The notes under the pieces are model-generated. The model worked only from the letters and a program-made list of their open reading frames with translations, ran no database searches and was not told the DNA's origin. 64,000 nt of DNA from Candidatus Gottesmanbacteria bacterium (GTDB lineage: Bacteria > Patescibacteriota > Microgenomatia > UBA10105 > UBA927), in assembly GCA_030679255.1 (NCBI GenBank), contig JAUXTO010000017.1, forward strand, positions 1,925-65,924. Reading direction: 5' to 3'. The translations under genes were made by a program, and so were the position numbers. Below are positions 28,620 to 37,507 of the stretch, piece by piece; within the stretch, counting starts at the first letter, position 1; each line of letters opens with the position of its first letter.

Positions 28620-29807
28620 ATGAATATCCTCGCAATCGAAACATCGTTCGATGAAACGGCTTGTGCGATTATTGAGGATGGAACGAAAATCATCAGTAAT
28701 GTTCTGGCAACGAGTCACGAAATGCATGATAAATACGGCGGGGTCGTGCCCGAAATCGCCGCACGCAGGCAACTCGAGTGCATCATCCCCGTGATCTCAG
28801 AATCTCTCCAACCCCTCGCCACTAGCAATTCTACACTTCTCCATAGAAGTGGAGAATTATTTCCTGATTGGATAAGAAAAACGATTAAAGAATCAATTGA
28901 TGCTATTGCCGTCACAGTCGGACCGGGACTCATTGGATCGCTTTTGGTCGGCGTGGAAACCGCCAAGACCATCGCATTCGTCACTGACAAGCCGATCATC
29001 CCCGTCAACCATGTACTTGCCCATATGTATGCGAATTTTCTCGATTCCAATCGTGAAAATTCGTCCCGAGCGCAGTCGAGGAAAACACTTATTGAATTCC
29101 CCTCCATCTCCCTCGTCGTATCCGGCGGACACACAGAACTTTATTTGATGAAGTCAGCCAAAGACCTGACGTGGATAGGAGGGACGCTGGATGATGCAGC
29201 AGGAGAATGTTTTGACAAAACTGCCCGTCTGTTGGGTTTCGGCCACGGCGGTGGAGTGGCAATAGAAGCTGCTGCTTCAAAATATCAAATAGCAAATAGC
29301 AAAAATCAAATAAAATTGCCTAGACCAATGATGGATGATAAAACGCTCAATTTTTCCTTCAGCGGACTGAAAACCGCGGTCATGAGGGAATGGAAAAAGT
29401 GTCATCCCGGACTTGATCCGGGATCCAGTTCAAAAAAAGATTCCGGCTCGGAGGCCGGAATGACAAGCGCCTTCGCCCACGAAATACAGGAAGCCATTAC
29501 CGATGTTCTTGTCAAAAAAACAATTCGCGCGGCAAAACAATATGAGGCAAAATCCATTCTCCTCTCCGGCGGTGTGGCAGCCAACACACGTCTCCGAGAA
29601 AAGTTTCTCTCTACACTTTCCACTTTACACTCTCCACTTTTTTTCGCGCCTCCCCCGTCTCTCTGCACCGATAACGCCGTCATGATCGCCGCGTGCGCCT
29701 ACTTCAATGGTGAATCCACAAATTGGCGCAACATTACTGCTGCGCCTGATTTGTCCGTTGAGCTTTTCAATTCTTCGCTCACAGATCAACTCCCAGATTC
29801 CTCTTGA
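28620..29807 (+). CDS. tsaD: tRNA N6-adenosine threonylcarbamoyltransferase TsaD (Kae1/Gcp family) with several in-frame insertions
   Basis: MNILAIETSFDETACAI, VSGGHTELY, DDAAGECFDKTARLLG, SGGVAANTRLR, CTDNAVMIA; extra segments relative to canonical TsaD are encoded by hairpin repeats. Confidence 0.85.
   Translation: MNILAIETSFDETACAIIEDGTKIISNVLATSHEMHDKYGGVVPEIAARRQLECIIPVISESLQPLATSNSTLLHRSGELFPDWIRKTIKESIDAIAVTVGPGLIGSLLVGVETAKTIAFVTDKPIIPVNHVLAHMYANFLDSNRENSSRAQSRKTLIEFPSISLVVSGGHTELYLMKSAKDLTWIGGTLDDAAGECFDKTARLLGFGHGGGVAIEAAASKYQIANSKNQIKLPRPMMDDKTLNFSFSGLKTAVMREWKKCHPGLDPGSSSKKDSGSEAGMTSAFAHEIQEAITDVLVKKTIRAAKQYEAKSILLSGGVAANTRLREKFLSTLSTLHSPLFFAPPPSLCTDNAVMIAACAYFNGESTNWRNITAAPDLSVELFNSSLTDQLPDSS
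29402..29465. repeat. about 64 bp two-hairpin repeat element (copy B), in-frame inside tsaD, encoding PGLDPGSSSKKDSGSEAGMT
   Basis: tcatcccggacttgatccgggatccagttcaaaaaaagattccggctcggaggccggaatgac; both stems keep pairing relative to copy A through compensatory changes. Confidence 0.8.
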
Positions 29808-30182
29808 TAAACAACAGACGCTCTCTTTGATCCGCTACTAGAATATATAAACAAAACCTCATCTTCACCAAAAAGATCAACAAAATCAAAAACTGCTTCA
29901 GCTTGCATGATACAGTCTAATGTTTTTGGTTCTGCGTCATAACGTCCATTTAATAGAGGCACCACCACAGAATCTCTACTACCGTCGTTCTCAACACCAC
30001 GCATAAAAATAGTAATCGATTCGGCCCCTACATTGACTGGAACGTTAACGCTATCGAATCCAACATCTTGTTTTCCCTTTTTTAGTACTGCTGAATCTTT
30101 AAATTTTAACCACTCTGGAACATCAGCCTTGTCATGAGCTTTTGGATTTCTCTGTTCATAGTCTACTCTAAAAACTGCCATC
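29786..30182 (-). CDS. hypothetical acidic protein
   Basis: start chosen at MAVFRVDYEQ with GGAGG RBS; no recognisable motif. Confidence 0.4.
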
Positions 30183-30221
30183 TCAAACACCTCCTCCGGG
30201 CAGATAGATAATCTGGAAGGT

Positions 30222-30231
30222 ACTCTCTCTC
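30222..30231. repeat. (CT)5 dinucleotide tract in bidirectional promoter region
   Basis: ctctctctct, read directly. Confidence 0.9.
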
Positions 30232-30258
30232 TGGGCAAAAGTCAAGAAAATGGGGTAT

Positions 30259-30330
30259 CCAGGTAGTAGAAACTCGACTGCATCCCAAAGTGATGCACGA
30301 TCTATCACTTGTCGAGTTTTCACTACCTGG
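30259..30330. mobile_element. 72 bp MITE-like element with 20 bp terminal inverted repeats, flanked by TAT
   Basis: ccaggtagtagaaactcgac...gtcgagttttcactacctgg; an identical copy sits at 33182-33253; absent from the otherwise homologous leader at 31290-31330. Confidence 0.65.
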
Positions 30331-30344
30331 TATACTTGGGATAT

Positions 30345-30668
30345 ATGGCTCACCCACCGAAGTCACTGCAAGGGACACTCTGGTCAAGCGATGTCAATCA
30401 ACTTGATCTCGACAAACACAGGGCCTACATCATCCACCAAATCCTCACGTTTGGCACCATGGATGAGCTCAAGTGGTTATTTGGGACCTACCCGAAACGG
30501 GAAATTGTCGATACATTTGTCCATCAACCAATGAAAATGTACCCAAATCATATCTATTGGTTCACAAAAAACCACCTCCTTTCTCTCCAACATACCCAGC
30601 TTGACGAACAAAACTATGTCACATCTCTTTTTGGACCAACTCGACCCCGAGCGGCAGCGGGTGTTTGA
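30345..30668 (+). CDS. small partner protein of AbiEii-like NTase (putative antitoxin/regulator), module 1
   Basis: MAHPPKSLQG...LDLDKHRAYIIHQIL...; paralogous to 31331 and 33268; 3' end overlaps the downstream NTase gene by about 53 nt. Confidence 0.6.
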   Translation: MAHPPKSLQGTLWSSDVNQLDLDKHRAYIIHQILTFGTMDELKWLFGTYPKREIVDTFVHQPMKMYPNHIYWFTKNHLLSLQHTQLDEQNYVTSLFGPTRPRAAAGV

Positions 30669-31263
30669 TAAACTCGCCGCGTTTGCCGATACCTTCGTCC
30701 TGGCCGGAGGCACTGCCATCATGCTTCAGATTGGTCATCGGAAGTCATTTGACTTCGATTGTTTTTCTCTCGACTCGCCTCCCAAAACAATTCTTCCCAA
30801 AGTGAAGCGCGTATTCGGCACGAACGTCTATCCAACGATCCAAACCCGAGACTTTCTCACCGTCTATACGCCGGAGCATGTTGAACTAACTTTTGCAAAA
30901 CACCCTTTTAAACCACTACGGCCTATCATGCAAACATCGTCCATCCCGCTCTTTCATATGGATGATCTCGTTGCAAACAAAGCCTATACCATCGGCAGGC
31001 GTCCGGCGTGGAGGGACTACGTCGATCTATTTTTTGTTCTGAAATGGAATCTCTATACGCTGGAAAATGTGATACAACTCGCAGAAAGAAAATTTTCAGG
31101 AGAATTCAACGCAAAGCTTCTCCTCCCTCAACTTACCTATTTTGAAGATATAAAACCCGCAGAAACTACATTTTTGAAAGAATCCTACAACGATGAGGAG
31201 ATCAAGGCGTTTCTCAACGATCAGGTGGACACCTACCTGGCAACCATCTTGCCACAAAAATAA
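30616..31263 (+). CDS. nucleotidyltransferase, AbiEii/AbiGii toxin-like (DUF1814-type), module 1
   Basis: FVLAGGTAIMLQIGHRKSFDFDCF matches the AbiEii N-terminal GGTAL...R.S.D.D motif; about 215 aa. Confidence 0.65.
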   Translation: MSHLFLDQLDPERQRVFDKLAAFADTFVLAGGTAIMLQIGHRKSFDFDCFSLDSPPKTILPKVKRVFGTNVYPTIQTRDFLTVYTPEHVELTFAKHPFKPLRPIMQTSSIPLFHMDDLVANKAYTIGRRPAWRDYVDLFFVLKWNLYTLENVIQLAERKFSGEFNAKLLLPQLTYFEDIKPAETTFLKESYNDEEIKAFLNDQVDTYLATILPQK

Positions 31264-31330
31264 CTTGTAGGATATTCAGGGACCGTCCCTAAATTACAAA
31301 AGTCAAGAAAATGGGGTATACTTCCTCTAT

Positions 31331-31630
31331 ATGGCTCATCCGCCGAAGTCGCTCCAAGCAGTACTGAAATCTGCAGCAATAGAAGACCTTGATTTGGAAA
31401 AAAATAAAGCCTATATCGTACACCAAATACTGGCATTCGGCTCGTGGGAACAAATGGTATGGTTACTCAATTATTACGGAGCCAATATGGTGCGGGAAGT
31501 CTTTCAAAAACAACCGATGAAACTCTATTCTCCGCAGGCCTTTCACTTTTCTCAACTTATTCTCAATACCCCTGATGCGCTAACACACAAAAATCATTAT
31601 GACCAAACTCTTTCTCGAGATCTTGGATGA
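31331..31630 (+). CDS. small partner protein, module 2
   Basis: MAHPPKSLQAVLKSAAIEDLDLEKNKAYIVHQILAFGS... Confidence 0.6.
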   Translation: MAHPPKSLQAVLKSAAIEDLDLEKNKAYIVHQILAFGSWEQMVWLLNYYGANMVREVFQKQPMKLYSPQAFHFSQLILNTPDALTHKNHYDQTLSRDLG

Positions 31631-32243
31631 CGCGCGGATATCTGTTCTAAAAAAATTAAGCGCATGCGCAAAAGACGCAGTACTTGCCGGTGGCACTTCT
31701 CTTGCTCTCCAGATAGGACACAGAAGATCCTTTGATTTTGATCTTTTTATCCCACGACCCATTCCGCGTACGCTCTACAAATCCATCCAAGAACTGTTCC
31801 ATGAATCACCCATGAAACATGTCGACACAGGAGACCAACTCACCGTAGAACTATCCTCCGGGATAGAAATCACATTTCTCTATTACTGGTACGCACCGCT
31901 TTATCCACCAATTCCCATGGCTGCACTTCCGCTTTGCGACAAGAGCGATATAGCCACAGACAAAGCAATGACCATCGGGAGACGCAATGCATGGCGCGAT
32001 TATGTAGATTTCTTTTTTCTTTTGAAAGACCGGCATGTCACACTCGCACAAATCATCACTGATGCCGAAAAACGCTTCGGAAATGAATTTTCGAAAAAAC
32101 TCTTTTTACAACAACTCTCCTACACTGGAGACATAAAAGATTTTTCTATTACCTATATCGGTGGCATTCATACACCACAGGAAATTACAGAATTTTTGGA
32201 ACGGCAAGCAAAAAATTACGCAACATCATCATTGCCGCTGTAG
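31599..32243 (+). CDS. nucleotidyltransferase, AbiEii-like, module 2
   Basis: AVLAGGTSLALQIGHRRSFDFDLF. Confidence 0.65.
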   Translation: MTKLFLEILDDARISVLKKLSACAKDAVLAGGTSLALQIGHRRSFDFDLFIPRPIPRTLYKSIQELFHESPMKHVDTGDQLTVELSSGIEITFLYYWYAPLYPPIPMAALPLCDKSDIATDKAMTIGRRNAWRDYVDFFFLLKDRHVTLAQIITDAEKRFGNEFSKKLFLQQLSYTGDIKDFSITYIGGIHTPQEITEFLERQAKNYATSSLPL

Positions 32244-32272
32244 CCGCCTCCTTCTTCATATCTGACTATCAC

Positions 32273-32734
32273 TTAAGAAGATTTTTTTATGACAAAGGCA
32301 TCGGTCAGAAGCCGCGACTGCCAATCGTACGCTTGGGCGACGTGTTCGGGGTTGCCTAATTTGACGAGCTCCTGGCTGATGAGTCGCGCCAAGTGATATC
32401 CTCCCAACGCTTCGCGATCAGCAGTTTGGACAAACAACGGGTGATCACGGTTGATAAAAATGATGCCTCCCTCCACAAAGCTCTAGCATGCCAAATTCAT
32501 GCCACCGATTTTGACGACACTCGCATCAGCGTCGTAGGCGTTGGCGACCAACTCCCGCACGAGATCCAGGCTCTCCGCACAGAGCCGGGTGCCGATAGTC
32601 GTCAGATGCGACTTATCAAGGGTAATGGGGATGGTAGACTGCTGCGCGGGGCTATTATATACCAAATATTCTGACAACGCCGTCATGATCGGAGCTGCTG
32701 CCTTTTTTAAAGGTATATCCACAGATTGGCCCAC
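32273..32734 (-). pseudogene. GHKL-ATPase N-terminal remnant with in-frame TAG (copy 1)
   Basis: LVRELVANAYDADASVVKIGGMNLAC-TAG-SFVEGGIIFINRDHP: Bergerat N-box (ELVxNAxDA) followed by a degenerate G1 box; truncated at both ends; its 5' part is antisense to the tsaD-3' duplicate. Confidence 0.5.
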
Positions 32735-32771
32735 AATTACTGCTACTCCTGATCTGGTTGTAGAAATATAG
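32665..32771 (+). repeat. duplicated tsaD 3'-end fragment (att-like scar)
   Basis: encodes DNAVMIGAAAFFKGISTDWPTITATPDLVVEI, close at both nt and aa level to the tsaD C-terminus DNAVMIAACAYFNGESTNWRNITAAPDLSVEL at 29680-29780. Confidence 0.7.
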
Positions 32772-32782
32772 ATATAAAATTT

Positions 32783-33091
32783 TTATTCTTTGGGAACGGA
32801 AGCCACGCTAACGCGAGGAAGAATACCTTTTTTATGATCTGCTATCTGCTCTACCGATGGGTTAAATACAACATATGATACCGGTCTTCCAGTTGTCAAA
32901 TCGATGACAGATCCACTAATCACGGGACTCCCGTCCGATAAATTTTCAGCGAAATTTGTTAGTGCGGCACCAAGACTTCCTGTGTCGAACAGCGTATTCA
33001 TCCCATCATGTTTTGCCTTTTCAACTCGCGCCTCTAAAACAATTTTCTCGAACGCATCTTCAACTCGTTCTAAGTCTCCTAGATTTGACAT
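32783..33091 (-). CDS. hypothetical protein
   Basis: 102 aa ORF divergent from module 3; no motif. Confidence 0.35.
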   Translation of the reverse strand: MSNLGDLERVEDAFEKIVLEARVEKAKHDGMNTLFDTGSLGAALTNFAENLSDGSPVISGSVIDLTTGRPVSYVVFNPSVEQIADHKKGILPRVSVASVPKE

Positions 33092-33143
33092 ATAAAACTC
33101 CTCCCTTTTTCTACTTGGTAATCTTAATTAATTTAAAATCCTA

Positions 33144-33155
33144 CTCTCTCTCTCT
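33144..33155. repeat. (CT)6 dinucleotide tract
   Basis: ctctctctctct. Confidence 0.9.
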
Positions 33156-33181
33156 GGAAAAATGTCAAGGAAGTGGGGTAT

Positions 33182-33253
33182 CCAGGTAGTAGAAACTCGA
33201 CTGCATCCCAAAGTGATGCACGATCTATCACTTGTCGAGTTTTCACTACCTGG
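33182..33253. mobile_element. 72 bp MITE-like element, second identical copy
   Basis: identical to 30259-30330; the surrounding roughly 113 nt is identical between copies although the downstream CDSs are only about 40-50% identical. Confidence 0.65.
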
Positions 33254-33267
33254 TATACTTGGGATAT

Positions 33268-33573
33268 ATGGCTCACCCACCGAAAGATCTCCAAGGGGCC
33301 CTCTGGTCAGCAGAGGTCAACACAATGGATTTGGAGAAAGATAAAAATTACATCATCCATCAGGTCTTTTCACACGGATCACTGGAGGATATGTTCTGGG
33401 TCTTGCGAACCTATCCCCGAGATAGCATCCGGCACGTCTTCGCCACAGTACCGTATAAAGACTACCGCGCACCACGGTTTTACTTCATAAAAAACTTCCT
33501 TCTTAATCTGCGAGATACTCCCATGAACGAACATCGTTATGTCAAAAATATTCCTCGAGATATTAGATCCTGA
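33268..33573 (+). CDS. small partner protein, module 3
   Basis: MAHPPKDLQGALWSAEVNTMDLEKDKNYIIHQVF... Confidence 0.6.
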   Translation: MAHPPKDLQGALWSAEVNTMDLEKDKNYIIHQVFSHGSLEDMFWVLRTYPRDSIRHVFATVPYKDYRAPRFYFIKNFLLNLRDTPMNEHRYVKNIPRDIRS

Positions 33574-34189
33574 ACGACAAAAAGTGTTTAGACAGCTCGC
33601 CGAGTTCCGTGGCGACGGGTATCTTGCCGGCGGCACCGCCCTTGCGCTACAACTTGGTCACCGCGTGTCGATTGATTTTGATGTATTCACCTATAAAGAG
33701 GTAAGTACGCGCCTCCGATCTGCCATTGCAAAACATTTTTCCATACAACAGGTTCATCTCAACACATCCGATCAATACACCTTCACGACCCATGGGAATA
33801 TCGAAGTGACCTTCGTATGGTTTGACTACCCGCTCATCCGTCCACTTATACCAACGCCATCTATCTCACTGGCTACAATAGTAGATATCGCAGCAAATAA
33901 AGCAAACACGCTCGGACTTCGCGCGGTGTGGCGGGACTATGTAGATCTTTTCTGGCTTTTGCGCGAAGAGGGCATGGTACTCCAAGATATTATTGCCTGG
34001 GCAAAACAAAAATACCCTACACAGTTCGTCGAAGCGCAATTTTTGGAACAGCTCTGCTACTTTGCTGATCTTACCGTAACGCCAATACAATTTTTCAAAA
34101 AACGCTATAGCACTAACGATATCCAATCATTCCTTCAAAAAGGAGTTGGTGCCTACCTGGACACAAGGAGAAAACAAGAGCTGCGATAA
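33539..34189 (+). CDS. nucleotidyltransferase, AbiEii-like, module 3
   Basis: YLAGGTALALQLGHRVSIDFDVF. Confidence 0.7.
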   Translation: MSKIFLEILDPERQKVFRQLAEFRGDGYLAGGTALALQLGHRVSIDFDVFTYKEVSTRLRSAIAKHFSIQQVHLNTSDQYTFTTHGNIEVTFVWFDYPLIRPLIPTPSISLATIVDIAANKANTLGLRAVWRDYVDLFWLLREEGMVLQDIIAWAKQKYPTQFVEAQFLEQLCYFADLTVTPIQFFKKRYSTNDIQSFLQKGVGAYLDTRRKQELR

Positions 34190-34279
34190 TCTCACCGGAC
34201 AACGCCGCCGCCTACTTCCTTGCATCTCGCATCTGGCCATCACAAAACTATGCACGTGCATAATATTGTGATCTTCTGA

Positions 34280-34675
34280 TTATGAAGAAGATTTCTTTAT
34301 GACAAAAGCATCGGTCAGAAGCCGCGACTGCCAATCGTACGCCTGAGCAATCTCTCCGGAACGGGCAAGTTTGACGAGCTCCTGGGTGATGAGTCGCGCC
34401 AAGTGATACCCTCCCAACCCTTCGCGGTCAGCAGTTTGGACAAACAACGGGTGATCACGGTTGATAAAAATGATGCCTCCCTCCACAAAGCTCTAGCATG
34501 CCAGATTCATGCCACCGGTTTTGACGACACTCGCATCAGCATCGTAGGCGTTGGCGACGAGCTCTCGCACGAGATCCAGGCTCTCCGCATAGAGCCGGGT
34601 GCCAATAGTAGTCAAGTGTGATTTATCAAACGTAATAGGGATCGTGGATTGCTGCACGGGACTATTATATACCAA
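34280..34675 (-). pseudogene. GHKL-ATPase N-terminal remnant with the same in-frame TAG (copy 2)
   Basis: about 90% nt identity to copy 1; LVRELVANAYDADASVVKTGGMNLAC-TAG-SFVEGGIIFINRDHP. Confidence 0.5.
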
Positions 34676-34808
34676 ACGCTCCTACAATTCCCCCAGCGAA
34701 AAAATCATGCCAATTTCCCTCCGGTCGGGAGTAAAATAGCATGATTTATTTTATGCCACCAATTCCGTCATGATCAGCGCCGCCGGACCGTCCCGAAATT
34801 CACTCTCA

Positions 34809-35141
34809 TTATTCCACCGAAACTACTGATATTGATCCATGTCCGTTCACATTACTCAATGTCACAGAAGGAACGCCATTATCAGGAAAAACCGTCACGC
34901 TTTTCAAGGATTCTGTATGTAATATACTCTCAAGGGTTTCCTGGGATACACGGTTCAAATCCAAACGAACTTTATCATCAGGAACATATTGAAAGGTAAC
35001 AACTAATACTTCATCATTTTCATTCGCCTCAATTATGCACTTCGCTTCACCATATGCTAGGTATTGTCTTTCTCCTGGCACCAATATTCCATGAAGAATT
35101 TCTTTGCCATCTTCTCCAATTTCAATCTTTTGAATTGCCAT
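34809..35141 (-). CDS. hypothetical acidic protein
   Basis: 110 aa ORF divergent from valS; shares an upstream region with 29786-30182 but not its sequence. Confidence 0.35.
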   Translation of the reverse strand: MAIQKIEIGEDGKEILHGILVPGERQYLAYGEAKCIIEANENDEVLVVTFQYVPDDKVRLDLNRVSQETLESILHTESLKSVTVFPDNGVPSVTLSNVNGHGSISVVSVE

Positions 35142-35183
35142 ATCATTTCACCTCCTCCAGGCAGATAGATAACTGGGAAGGTA

Positions 35184-35199
35184 CTCTCTCTCTCTCTCT
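35184..35199. repeat. (CT)8 dinucleotide tract
   Basis: ctctctctctctctct. Confidence 0.9.
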
Positions 35200-35233
35200 G
35201 CAAAAGTCAAGAAAAACAGTTACAATATGGAAC

Positions 35234-37507
35234 ATGGACAAAGCGTATAATCCGCAAGCAGTTGAGGAAGCCATATATAAGATGTGGGAAACCGGGGGAT
35301 ATTTTACCCCGAAATTAATTCCTAAAGAAGCCCTGCCTGCCGGCAGGCAGCCATTTTCCATCCTTCTCCCTCCACCCAACGCTAACGCTGACCTGCACGT
35401 CGGGCATGCGATGTATGTGGTCGAGGACATTATGATCCGCTATCACCGCATGAAGGGCGACCCCACGCTCTGGATGCCCGGGGCCGACCACGCAGGATTT
35501 GAGACGCAGTATGTGTATGAAAAACATTTGGCTAAACAGGGAAAGAGCCGGTTTGATTTTGACCGGGAGACACTGTATAAAGATATCTGGAACTTTGTCC
35601 ACACAAACCGCGGCTCGATGGAAAACCAACTCCGAAGGTTAGGGTTTTCGCTCGATTGGAGTCGAAACGTTTTTACCCTGGATCCTAGCATAGTTGAAAC
35701 GGTATACAAATCTTTTAAGCAGCTTTTTGACGAAGGACTTGTGTACCGCGATAAACGTCTGGTCAATTACTGCACCAAAGACGGTACCGGATTTTCGGAC
35801 CTCGAAGTCCTTTACGTCGAGCGCAATGACCCTCTCTACTATATTAAGTACGGCCCCTTCACTATCGCCACCGCCCGGCCGGAAACGAAATTCCGCGACA
35901 CGGCTCTCGCTGTCAACCCCAAAGACAAGCGCTATAAAAAGTACATCGGACAAACATTAGAAATTATGGGGCTCCTGGGTCCCATCACGATGACGGTCAT
36001 CCCTGATCCGCACGTCGATCCCAAATTTGGTACCGGCATCATGAAAGTGACACCGGCCCATGACCCGCATGATTTTGAGCTTGGACGGCAATTTAATCTG
36101 CCCGTCACTCCCATCATCGATTTCCGCGGAAAGATGGACTTTTCGTGGTTTCTCTCCCAAAAAGACATTGATCCTAAATATAGGGCACGGGCAGAAAATT
36201 ACCATGGTAAAAAAGTGGCCATCGTCCGGCCGCTCATGGTTGAAGATCTCAAAGCTGATGGACTGATGATAAAAATCGATGAAGCCTACACCCATCGGAT
36301 CGGTACCTGCTGGAAATGCGGAACCGTCATCGAGCCGCTTCCCCTGGAACAGTGGTATGTGAAAGTTGCCCCGATGACAAAAAAGGCAATCGAGGCGATC
36401 AATAAAAAACAAGTGACGTTTGTTCCGAAGCGGTTTGAAAAAACAGCCAAACAGTGGCTCACGAACTTCCATGACTGGAACATCAGCCGTCAAAATGTAT
36501 GGGGAATCCGGATCCCGGCATGGCACTGCGCACTTTGTGCGCAGAATCCGACCCGCTTCGCCAAAGCGATAGCGAGGCGAGCAAATACTACCAATAAGTC
36601 AAACGCTCAATCAATAAGACTCTCCGGATGGGTTGTGACGGATGGGGAAAAGCCAGAAACGTGTCCGACGTGCGGGGGCCGCGATCTCACCCAGGACACG
36701 GATACATTTGATACATGGTTTAGCTCGGGACAATGGCCCTTCGCAACGCTTCGCGCAACAAGAGACTTTGACTATTTCTATCCGACGACGGTCATGGAAA
36801 CGGGATATGACATCCTCCCCTGGTGGGTATGCCGGATGCTTATGCTCGGCATTCATTTAACCGGCAGCGTGCCGTTCACCACCGTCTATCTTCATGGACT
36901 CGTCCGGGATGCACAAGGTCAAAAAATGAGTAAGAGCAAAGGCAATGTCATCAATCCTCTCAAAATGGTTGATCAATACGGTGCCGATGCGCTCCGGATG
37001 GCGCTCGTGTTTGGCACGGGAGCGGGAAACGATCAGGCGCTCTCGGAAGACAAAATCCGTGGGATGCGGAATTTTGCCAATAAATTGTGGAACATTGGAC
37101 GGTTCATTGAAATGAACCTTCAAATCTCAAATCCCTATGACCAAATCACAATATACGATGAAAACATGCATAAAATGCTCAAAAATCCCAATGATAAACG
37201 GATCATTTCCCAAACGAATATGCTTGTTGCCGGAGTCACGAAGGATCTTGATCGATACCGATTCTCCGATGCTGCTCAGAAAATCTATAACTTTACCTGG
37301 CATACGCTCGCCGATGTGCATTTGGAAAAAAATAAAGAACGGTTTAAAGAAGGTGATGGTCAGGCAATAGCGGTTCTTCGACACGTCTTCCTCACGATCA
37401 TGAAACTTCTCCACCCGTTCATGCCTTTTGTGACGGAAGAAATCTGGAGCAAACTACCGAGAAAAACGACTGATCCTCTCATCATCTCCCCTTGGCCCGG
37501 GAATTGA
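35234..37507 (+). CDS. valS: valyl-tRNA synthetase (compact, no C-terminal coiled coil)
   Basis: PPPNANADLHVGHA (HIGH), KMSKSKGN (KMSKS), editing (CP1) and anticodon-binding regions. Confidence 0.9.
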   Translation: MDKAYNPQAVEEAIYKMWETGGYFTPKLIPKEALPAGRQPFSILLPPPNANADLHVGHAMYVVEDIMIRYHRMKGDPTLWMPGADHAGFETQYVYEKHLAKQGKSRFDFDRETLYKDIWNFVHTNRGSMENQLRRLGFSLDWSRNVFTLDPSIVETVYKSFKQLFDEGLVYRDKRLVNYCTKDGTGFSDLEVLYVERNDPLYYIKYGPFTIATARPETKFRDTALAVNPKDKRYKKYIGQTLEIMGLLGPITMTVIPDPHVDPKFGTGIMKVTPAHDPHDFELGRQFNLPVTPIIDFRGKMDFSWFLSQKDIDPKYRARAENYHGKKVAIVRPLMVEDLKADGLMIKIDEAYTHRIGTCWKCGTVIEPLPLEQWYVKVAPMTKKAIEAINKKQVTFVPKRFEKTAKQWLTNFHDWNISRQNVWGIRIPAWHCALCAQNPTRFAKAIARRANTTNKSNAQSIRLSGWVVTDGEKPETCPTCGGRDLTQDTDTFDTWFSSGQWPFATLRATRDFDYFYPTTVMETGYDILPWWVCRMLMLGIHLTGSVPFTTVYLHGLVRDAQGQKMSKSKGNVINPLKMVDQYGADALRMALVFGTGAGNDQALSEDKIRGMRNFANKLWNIGRFIEMNLQISNPYDQITIYDENMHKMLKNPNDKRIISQTNMLVAGVTKDLDRYRFSDAAQKIYNFTWHTLADVHLEKNKERFKEGDGQAIAVLRHVFLTIMKLLHPFMPFVTEEIWSKLPRKTTDPLIISPWPGN

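Follow-up and report, generated by a model that had tools for sequence, protein, structure and literature searches.

The window analysed here is a 64-kb stretch of a contig from a groundwater Gottesmanbacteria genome (Candidate Phyla Radiation (CPR)/Patescibacteria), and our subject is an island lying in it between the housekeeping genes tsaD and valS. The island holds three tandem copies, or modules, of an overlapping gene pair on the + strand (30345–31263, 31331–32243 and 33268–34189), in each of which a small gene (S1–S3) is followed by a larger one (N1–N3) for a nucleotidyltransferase (NTase). An earlier note on this DNA, made from its letters alone, had picked out the three pairs at these positions together with the housekeeping flanks, which Pfam identifies as a VanW gene, a cytidylyltransferase-like gene and tsaD on the left and valS on the right. 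The overlaps, put there at 32–53 nt, measure 53, 32 and 35 nt in modules 1, 2 and 3, respectively, a layout that resembles that of translationally coupled operons. N1 is counted as 215 residues from its ATG; a TTG at 30601 likewise lies in the open frame. All three small proteins begin MAHPPK(S/D)LQ and every copy carries the NTase signature, both as the note had described. The copies are indeed diverged, with identities slightly lower than the 40–50% first given: 41–43% among S1–S3, 37–43% among N1–N3 and 58–62% between the modules in DNA. There is no fourth copy in the window. S3 has a 100% identical counterpart in a Candidatus Gottesmanbacteria metagenome-assembled genome. Measured against orthologues in other contigs, the ratio of nonsynonymous to synonymous substitution rates (dN/dS) is 0.10–0.21 for S3 and 0.16–0.18 for N3, and both are therefore real genes under constraint (purifying selection).

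The large proteins are AbiEii/DUF1814 nucleotidyltransferases, as had been proposed from the signature. In a hidden Markov model (HMM) search with PF08843 (AbiEii), N1, N2 and N3 score 45.0, 38.2 and 42.9 bits, all above the Pfam gathering cut-off of 22.5; matches to the PADLOC AbiEii models are weak (best E 1e-7), and homologues in public sources are labelled ‘nucleotidyl transferase AbiEii/AbiGii toxin family protein’. A search of PDB sequences with the NTase profile gave no meaningful match. The AlphaFold2 model of N3 is confident (predicted local distance difference test, pLDDT, 95) and, when compared with solved structures using Foldseek, it matched JHP933 (7.6e-8), MenT4 (2.1e-5) and MenT1 (8.5e-5), each with probability 1.00, with CCA-adding enzymes as the next matches behind these three.

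The motif LAGGT(A/S)..LQ.GHR.S.DFD.F is found in N1–N3, and within it LAGGT-x10-S-x-D-F-D-x-F satisfies the pattern of Pol-beta-type NTases, hG[GS]x9-13Dh[DE]h. Residues invariant across 18 and 46 family members include G31, G32, T33, R42, S44, D46, D48, K122, R129, D134, Y135 and D137 (N1 numbering). They define an active-site pattern S44-x-D46-x-D48 ... K122 ... D137, in which K122 and D137 are 15 residues apart. The published catalytic sets are T39/D41/K137/D152 in MenT1, S78/D80/K189/D211 in MenT3 and S67/D69/K171/D186 in MenT4 (PMC11375011, PMC7450476), and the phospho-acceptor of AbiEii is T65 (bioRxiv 10.64898/2026.01.19.700257). By position S44, two residues ahead of D46, matches T39, S78 and S67 of MenT1, MenT3 and MenT4, and K122 and D137 would be the equivalents of the catalytic Lys and Asp of MenT1 and MenT4, going by their spacing and not by superposition. 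N1, N2 and N3 all look catalytically competent since all three keep the active-site residues. The earlier label of type IV for such toxins is giving way to type VII, as the AbiE toxin is induced by its antitoxin to phosphorylate itself (PMC11375011; bioRxiv 10.64898/2026.01.19.700257).

The note had not recognised the small proteins as a named family. They are members of Pfam DUF6922 (PF21956), a catalogued family without a described function, with scores of 42.3, 38.5 and 43.8 bits for S1, S2 and S3 against a gathering cut-off of 27. Their listed homologues carry the same Pfam mark, public databases hold the partners only as hypothetical proteins, none of the 165 listed homologues is a named or characterised member, and no mention of DUF6922 or PF21956 was found in the searchable literature. 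A profile search of 1.84 billion cluster representatives returned 1,115 matches at E<=1e-3 and 172 at E<=1e-10, whilst a tblastn search of plasmids with S3 returned none. The AlphaFold2 model of S3 (pLDDT 92) has four short helices (residues 26–36, 39–48, 51–60 and 68–78), forming a compact domain with extended tails, and the family as a whole is basic (median isoelectric point, pI, 9.7). The note had described the partner as far shorter than AbiEi; neither its sequence nor its fold showed a detectable resemblance to AbiEi, to MenA or to a solved structure of any kind, and the partner profile gave no meaningful match among PDB sequences. The C-terminal tail YVKNIPRDIR is conserved, and the same DNA encodes the NTase N-terminus, MSKI.LEILD; conservation of the tail may thus come in part from dual coding. 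Two proteins of great length, one of them from a mollusc genome, also match the DUF6922 profile over 8–10 short, repeated stretches (P0144, 1227 aa; P0177/P0199, 983/1149 aa, Patella caerulea, ‘CARD domain-containing protein’), which could be a spurious match to helical repeats or a distant relationship.

The two families are tied together by a genomic pairing that is nearly obligate, overlapping and independent of context. Three look-ups of the partner, covering three different genomic contexts, found DUF6922 followed by an overlapping AbiEii gene in all 7 of 7 contigs; distant members of the family (20–30% identity) were paired with an NTase in 4/4, and look-ups that began with the NTase found DUF6922 upstream in 2/2. 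A scan of GTDB with one genome per species gave 80 DUF6922 loci, mostly in Patescibacteria, and 77 of them have downstream DNA. At 69 of these 77 the end of the partner gene overlaps the start of an NTase homologue on the same strand. At the others the partner gene stands without an NTase; in one case the N-terminal part of an NTase survives, fused to another open reading frame (ORF). A pair in which the NTase does the harm would be expected to decay in this way, the NTase being lost and its partner left behind. The near-obligate, overlapping, context-independent pairing, together with decay that spares the small gene, therefore gives the pair the look of a toxin–antitoxin (TA) module, and, as is general for such systems, the two genes form a conserved operon that moves as a unit between genomic contexts.

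Table 1 Features of the tsaD–valS island, with window positions (MITE, miniature inverted-repeat transposable element; TIR, terminal inverted repeat; RBS, ribosome-binding site)
Feature	Position	Strand	Evidence and remarks
tsaD, left housekeeping flank	28620–29807	+	Pfam TsaD, E 6e-76
m1, 131-aa ORF, divergent from module 1	29786–30181	−	ORF list; preceded by RBS GGAGGAGGTG
Divergent 5′ region in common	30183–30258		Recurs before m3/valS (35133–35215, 82%) and before S3 and S2
MITE copy 1, 72 nt	30259–30330		20-nt TIRs CCAGGTAGTAGAAACTCGAC, 32-nt core, TAT/TAT flanks
S1, DUF6922, module 1, 107 aa	30345–30668	+	PF21956, E 5e-11
N1, AbiEii/MenT-like NTase, module 1, 215 aa	30616–31263	+	PF08843, E 1.7e-11
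S2, DUF6922, module 2, 99 aa	31331–31630	+	PF21956, E 8e-10; no MITE upstream
N2, AbiEii/MenT-like NTase, module 2, 214 aa	31599–32243	+	PF08843, E 2e-9
GHKL (HATPase_c_3) remnant 1	32273–32668	−	Mapping to 516-aa protein; Pfam alone weak, E 0.13
Displaced tsaD 3′ end, fragment 1 (residues ~350–382 to stop codon)	32670–32771	+	HMM mapping, alignment
m2, 102-aa ORF	32783–33091	−	ORF list; absent from orthologous locus L104
MITE copy 2, same 72 nt	33182–33253		Within 112-nt block identical to 30251–30362
S3, DUF6922, module 3, 101 aa	33268–33573	+	PF21956, E 1.8e-11; AlphaFold2 pLDDT 92
N3, AbiEii/MenT-like NTase, module 3, 216 aa	33539–34189	+	PF08843, E 7e-11; model pLDDT 95
GHKL remnant 2, internal deletion as in remnant 1	34280–34676	−	Mapping; nucleotide identity to remnant 1
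Possible third tsaD 3′ trace, 24 nt, 79%, weak	34760–34783	+	Self-comparison, alignment
m3, 110-aa ORF	34809–35141	−	5′ region 82% identical to that of m1
valS, right housekeeping flank	35240–37507	+	Pfam tRNA-synt_1, E 1e-119

The island (Table 1) reads, from left to right, tsaD; m1 (−), MITE, S1–N1, S2–N2, GHKL remnant; tsaD fragment; m2 (−), MITE, S3–N3, GHKL remnant; weak tsaD trace; m3 (−); valS. All of its ORFs are thereby assigned (S, N, GHKL remnants and m1–m3) and none matches a recombinase family; NCBIfam and PHROGs gave zero matches for any island protein, and Rfam none in 29500–35500 at E<=1. The island is not associated with a tRNA gene, since a tRNA scan of the window was empty. 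The duplicated 3′ fragment of tsaD that had been reported is present, 32670–32768 being 79% identical to 29670–29753, and self-comparison pairs 29670–29753 with 32673–32756 at the same 79%. The tsaD gene of the window itself runs ~14 codons past the usual ...PDLSVE end of its relatives and into inserted sequence (29754–29807), as if the newest insertion had removed its original stop codon. Its terminus falls where the opposite strand carries the 3′ end of m1. The two GHKL-ATPase remnants were also correctly recognised in the note. They are 89.5% identical over 392 nt (32275–32666 and 34285–34676) and in both of them residues 4–58 are joined directly to about 440–504 of a 516-aa HATPase_c_3 protein, so that the middle of the gene has been deleted; the intact 516-aa protein is found at the same place in related contigs. 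Between the second remnant and the weak tsaD trace lies an imperfect 25-nt palindrome (34699–34750, 76% complementary, 2-nt spacer).

Other repeats link the 5′ regions of the genes. Those of m1 and m3 (30173–30250 and 35133–35215) are 82% identical in the self-comparison and those of S1 and S3 (30223–30439 and 33146–33362) 85%. Within the latter, 30251–30362 and 33174–33285 are 100% identical over 112 nt, a block that takes in the MITE with its flanks and reaches 18 nt into the small gene. Beyond it, identity of the coding DNA between modules 1 and 3 drops to ~60%, and this difference suggests recent gene conversion or recombination of the 5′ regions. The ORFs m1, m2 and m3 are mutually unrelated, with strong GGAGG-type ribosome-binding sites ahead of m1 and m3; searches of Pfam, NCBIfam, PADLOC and PHROGs gave no match for any of the three, nor was a homologue found in the ~190 loci compared. 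Related genomes, too, have small minus-strand ORFs at the corresponding positions, but these are different and unrelated.

The tsaD...valS neighbourhood recurs in related genomes with different cargo and one to three modules in each. Locus L011 has tsaD, a 71-aa ORF (−), an S/N pair, GHKL and valS; L193 has tsaD, a VapBC-like pair, S/N, a tsaD fragment and valS; and L189–L192 have AAA_14/DUF4143 genes, S/N, two tsaD fragments, a full-length GHKL gene, two further S/N pairs and valS. The order is tsaD, tsaD fragment, MITE, S/N and valS in L104 and L139, and S/N, tsaD fragment, S/N in L001 and L014. At least one module is present in every related locus recovered, and the pair is therefore a persistent tenant of a variable hotspot. 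The other cargo in relatives comprises the 516-aa GHKL protein, AAA_14/DUF4143 genes and a PIN (VapC)-type pair (L011 4947–6505; L189 4972–6522; L001 2431–3579; L193 6744–7441), and such cargo makes the hotspot look like a small island of accessory or defence genes.

Displaced tsaD 3′ ends stand beside the cassettes in L001, L014, L104/L139, L189 (two copies) and L193. They are ~105 nt long, starting near the conserved GACAACGCCGTCATGATCGC and extending to the tsaD stop codon, and several lie within 10–20 nt of an NTase stop codon. At cassette borders such fragments would be the signature of repeated insertion into the 3′ end of tsaD. The site-specific accretion at this point suggested in the note thus gains from displaced fragments in five other related loci; it is weakened by the lack of an integrase or a clear att site. 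The modules themselves were rightly called old paralogues: the closest relatives of N1, N2 and N3 in other genomes are 58%, 49% and 93% identical, compared with 37–43% for neighbours in the array, and each module, being closer to other genomes than to its neighbours, belongs to an old, separate lineage.

Several known systems resemble the modules in part. In MenA1–MenT1 (Rv0078B–Rv0078A) of Mycobacterium tuberculosis, as in the arrangement here, a DUF1814 NTase toxin lies downstream of a short, unrelated antitoxin gene, and MenT1 has the same Thr/Ser-x-Asp, Lys, Asp active site with the same 15-residue spacing from Lys to Asp. N3 has MenT1 among its best matches in fold, yet the sequence identity of the NTases is only ~18%. 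MenA1 binds MenT1 directly and induces its auto-phosphorylation (PMC10435456, PMC11375011). It is a peptide of 68 aa, related to MazE and for the most part disordered or helical, whereas DUF6922 is a well-folded four-helix protein of ~100 aa with no similarity to it; a MenAT1-type module would have a short MazE-related antitoxin with one long helix, and here the S3 model shows a compact four-helix domain and the S proteins have no MazE-type Pfam match. The toxin family (PF08843/DUF1814) is also that of AbiEi–AbiEii (Streptococcus agalactiae, Lactococcus) and MenA3/4–MenT3/4, with the antitoxin gene again preceding the toxin gene, and MenT3/4 share with the NTases here a Ser/Thr phospho-acceptor two residues before the catalytic Asp. 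The antitoxins of these systems, however, are COG5340 proteins of 200–300 aa with a winged-helix DNA-binding domain, none of which is detectable in the partner here, and at ~215 aa our NTases are shorter than AbiEii and MenT3/4. As AbiEi is absent, the modules fall outside the AbiE system.

The best structural match of N3, JHP933 from the plasticity zone/integrative and conjugative element (ICE) of Helicobacter pylori, is a ~230-aa NTase with a small overlapping upstream ORF, jhp0932, and is carried on mobile DNA (PMC7450476, PMC12443045); Cai et al. described jhp0932–JHP933 as a ‘classic TA configuration’ (PMC7450476). No match from Helicobacter occurs in the DUF6922 homologue listings or profile search, in which the sequence of jhp0932 itself was not compared. 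With respect to their insertion, the cassettes are reminiscent of integrative elements that enter the 3′ ends of conserved genes (tRNA, tmRNA) and supply a replacement 3′ end, where displaced copies of the target mark the far border as they do here. They differ from such elements in having no integrase, a length of only 1–3 kb and a protein-coding target (tsaD).

The best reading of these observations is that DUF6922 represents a putative new class of antitoxin, one that serves a toxin family already known, each module being, in our estimation, probably a two-gene TA-like operon. From sequence and analogy we infer toxicity, a tRNA target, neutralisation, phosphorylation and the mechanism of insertion. 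As for MenT1, MenT3 and AbiEii, the NTase would add nucleotides to the 3′ ends of tRNA and so halt translation, and the DUF6922 protein, made from the same message, would neutralise its cognate NTase, most likely by binding it directly. It may in addition induce auto-phosphorylation of the NTase serine, as MenA1, MenA3 and AbiEi do; these three are structurally unrelated and each makes its NTase phosphorylate its own active-site Ser/Thr (PMC11375011; bioRxiv 10.64898/2026.01.19.700257). Control of this kind is plausible because the invariant S44 lies two residues before the DxD, and that DUF6922 might act by this particular route is a possibility we hold to be doubtful. The three modules would be old, mutually diverged lineages, probably insulated from one another, and the array would have grown as small cassettes entered the last ~105 nt of tsaD one after another, each of them shifting the previous tsaD 3′ end downstream. 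The composite proposal, that DUF6922 is a structurally new, mostly patescibacterial antitoxin class controlling MenT/AbiEii-type tRNA-modifying toxins through auto-phosphorylation of the active-site serine, and that integrase-less mini-cassettes recombine into the last ~105 nt of tsaD, is put forward tentatively, as falling somewhat short of probable.

Several points weigh against the main reading, that of a TA-like operon carried by inserted cassettes. Physical contact between S and N is a proposal and not an observed link. The partner family is basic and has no detectable similarity to a known antitoxin or DNA-binding fold, and toxicity is not universal among DUF1814 proteins, as MenT2 shows (PMC7450476). 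There is no integrase and no clear att or recombination site to explain the accretion. The empty tsaD–valS junction that the note had recommended looking for was not found in any related locus recovered, and a module at every junction would also fit a useful, non-selfish function. The pair might then be a two-subunit or regulated RNA nucleotidyltransferase in which DUF6922 serves as activator, specificity subunit or transcription factor. Purifying selection on both genes and the retention of up to three copies in reduced CPR genomes agree with such a role, as do a basic partner resembling a nucleic-acid binder, the CCA-adding enzymes as next-best fold matches and neighbours that are often tRNA-related (tsaD, valS, gatCAB, tRNA methylases). 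It is made improbable by the wide variation in copy number (1–3) and context and by the movement of the modules as cassettes with displaced tsaD ends, in the company of genes that characterise accessory or defence islands (VapBC, AAA_14/DUF4143, GHKL). Some partner genes stand without an NTase and remnants of NTases occur, the nearest solved relatives are toxins or toxin-like proteins, and a small upstream overlapping gene is the classic TA layout. A TA pair with the same biochemistry could also have been selected for abortive infection (Abi), in the manner of lactococcal and streptococcal AbiE, rather than for addiction or stabilisation of the island. The NTases do match the PADLOC AbiEii models, albeit weakly (best E 1e-7), and AbiE is a known Abi system (bioRxiv 10.64898/2026.01.19.700257) whose defining component, AbiEi, is however absent. 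The GHKL (HATPase_c_3), AAA_14/DUF4143 and VapBC genes at the hotspot in relatives would suit phage defence and three diverged copies could broaden the range of phage triggers, but the PHROGs search of the island proteins was without a match, and we consider this selected role unlikely.

For the origin of the array, repeated insertion has to be weighed against local tandem duplication of a single unit (tsaD 3′ end, small ORF, module and GHKL remnant) followed by divergence in place. Duplication would account for the shared internal deletion and 89.5% identity of the GHKL remnants, for the abutment of the GHKL 5′ end on the tsaD 3′ fragment, which is like a junction of unequal crossing-over, and for the identical 112-nt block upstream of S1 and S3. 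The parts of the supposed unit have nevertheless diverged unevenly, from 100% identity in the block through 90% for GHKL and 79% for the tsaD fragment to ~60% for the modules, with m1–m3 unrelated; each module has its closer relatives in other genomes and not in the array, and tsaD fragments recur at cassette borders elsewhere with different cargo. We judge this account to have little probability and, on the uneven divergence and the closer relatives elsewhere, reject it as the sole origin of the array. The same uneven divergence, together with the 100% identical block, points to later duplication or gene conversion as well, and the best fit is a combination of insertion, duplication and gene conversion.

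MenT/AbiEii NTase toxins, which modify tRNA ends, are an active topic in which unrelated antitoxins appear to converge on induced auto-phosphorylation. If our reading of DUF6922 is true, the generality of this mechanism could be tested on one more unrelated class of partner, the third or fourth, which has a confident predicted fold and some thousand sequence clusters, and a Pfam domain of unknown function would gain one. Ultra-small CPR genomes are also seen to keep multiple TA-like modules in a defined hotspot beside essential tRNA-related genes. The toxin belongs to a known family and the partner class would be the new part; novelty is limited in that exchange of antitoxins is common among toxin families and in that Pfam and public databases already list both proteins.

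A side finding concerns the 72-nt hairpin before S1 and S3 (RNA fold −45 kcal/mol, z −6.1), which proved to belong to a family of MITEs and is absent from module 2 and from the related loci L001–L007. Metagenome contigs contain 101 exact matches to its 20-nt arm (L088–L188; examples are L093 1297–1618 and L154 12411–12871), always as terminal inverted repeats around variable cores. The 69 unique copies are 57–155 nt long, with a few more of 233–324 nt. Perfect 4-bp flanking duplications, mostly NATG or CATN, are present in 52 of the 69, and in 37 of the 39 copies whose duplication contains ATG this ATG is precisely the first codon of a long host ORF; the MITE therefore inserts at start codons. 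An operator or a 5′-untranslated-region RNA element was considered for the inverted repeat and rejected, as it is a dispersed MITE present in ~100 metagenome stretches in unrelated contexts and with target-site duplications. No Rfam family and no description in the literature were found for it. Versions of 319–324 nt carry a gene for a 100-aa GIY-YIG nuclease (Pfam E 1e-18). The other copy of the duplicated ATG is the start codon of this gene, and the protein begins MPGSENST, a stretch that the inverted repeat itself encodes.

A promoter scan of the sequence was not enriched relative to shuffles (11 found, 9.7 expected). A TATACT box ends 8 nt ahead of the ATG in each of S1–S3, with no Shine–Dalgarno sequence (30331–30344, 31317–31330 and 33254–33267); these boxes are only suggestive, and the S transcripts may have little or no leader. 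The right arm of the MITE provides a −35-like hexamer, TTGTCG, and a TG extension in modules 1 and 3.

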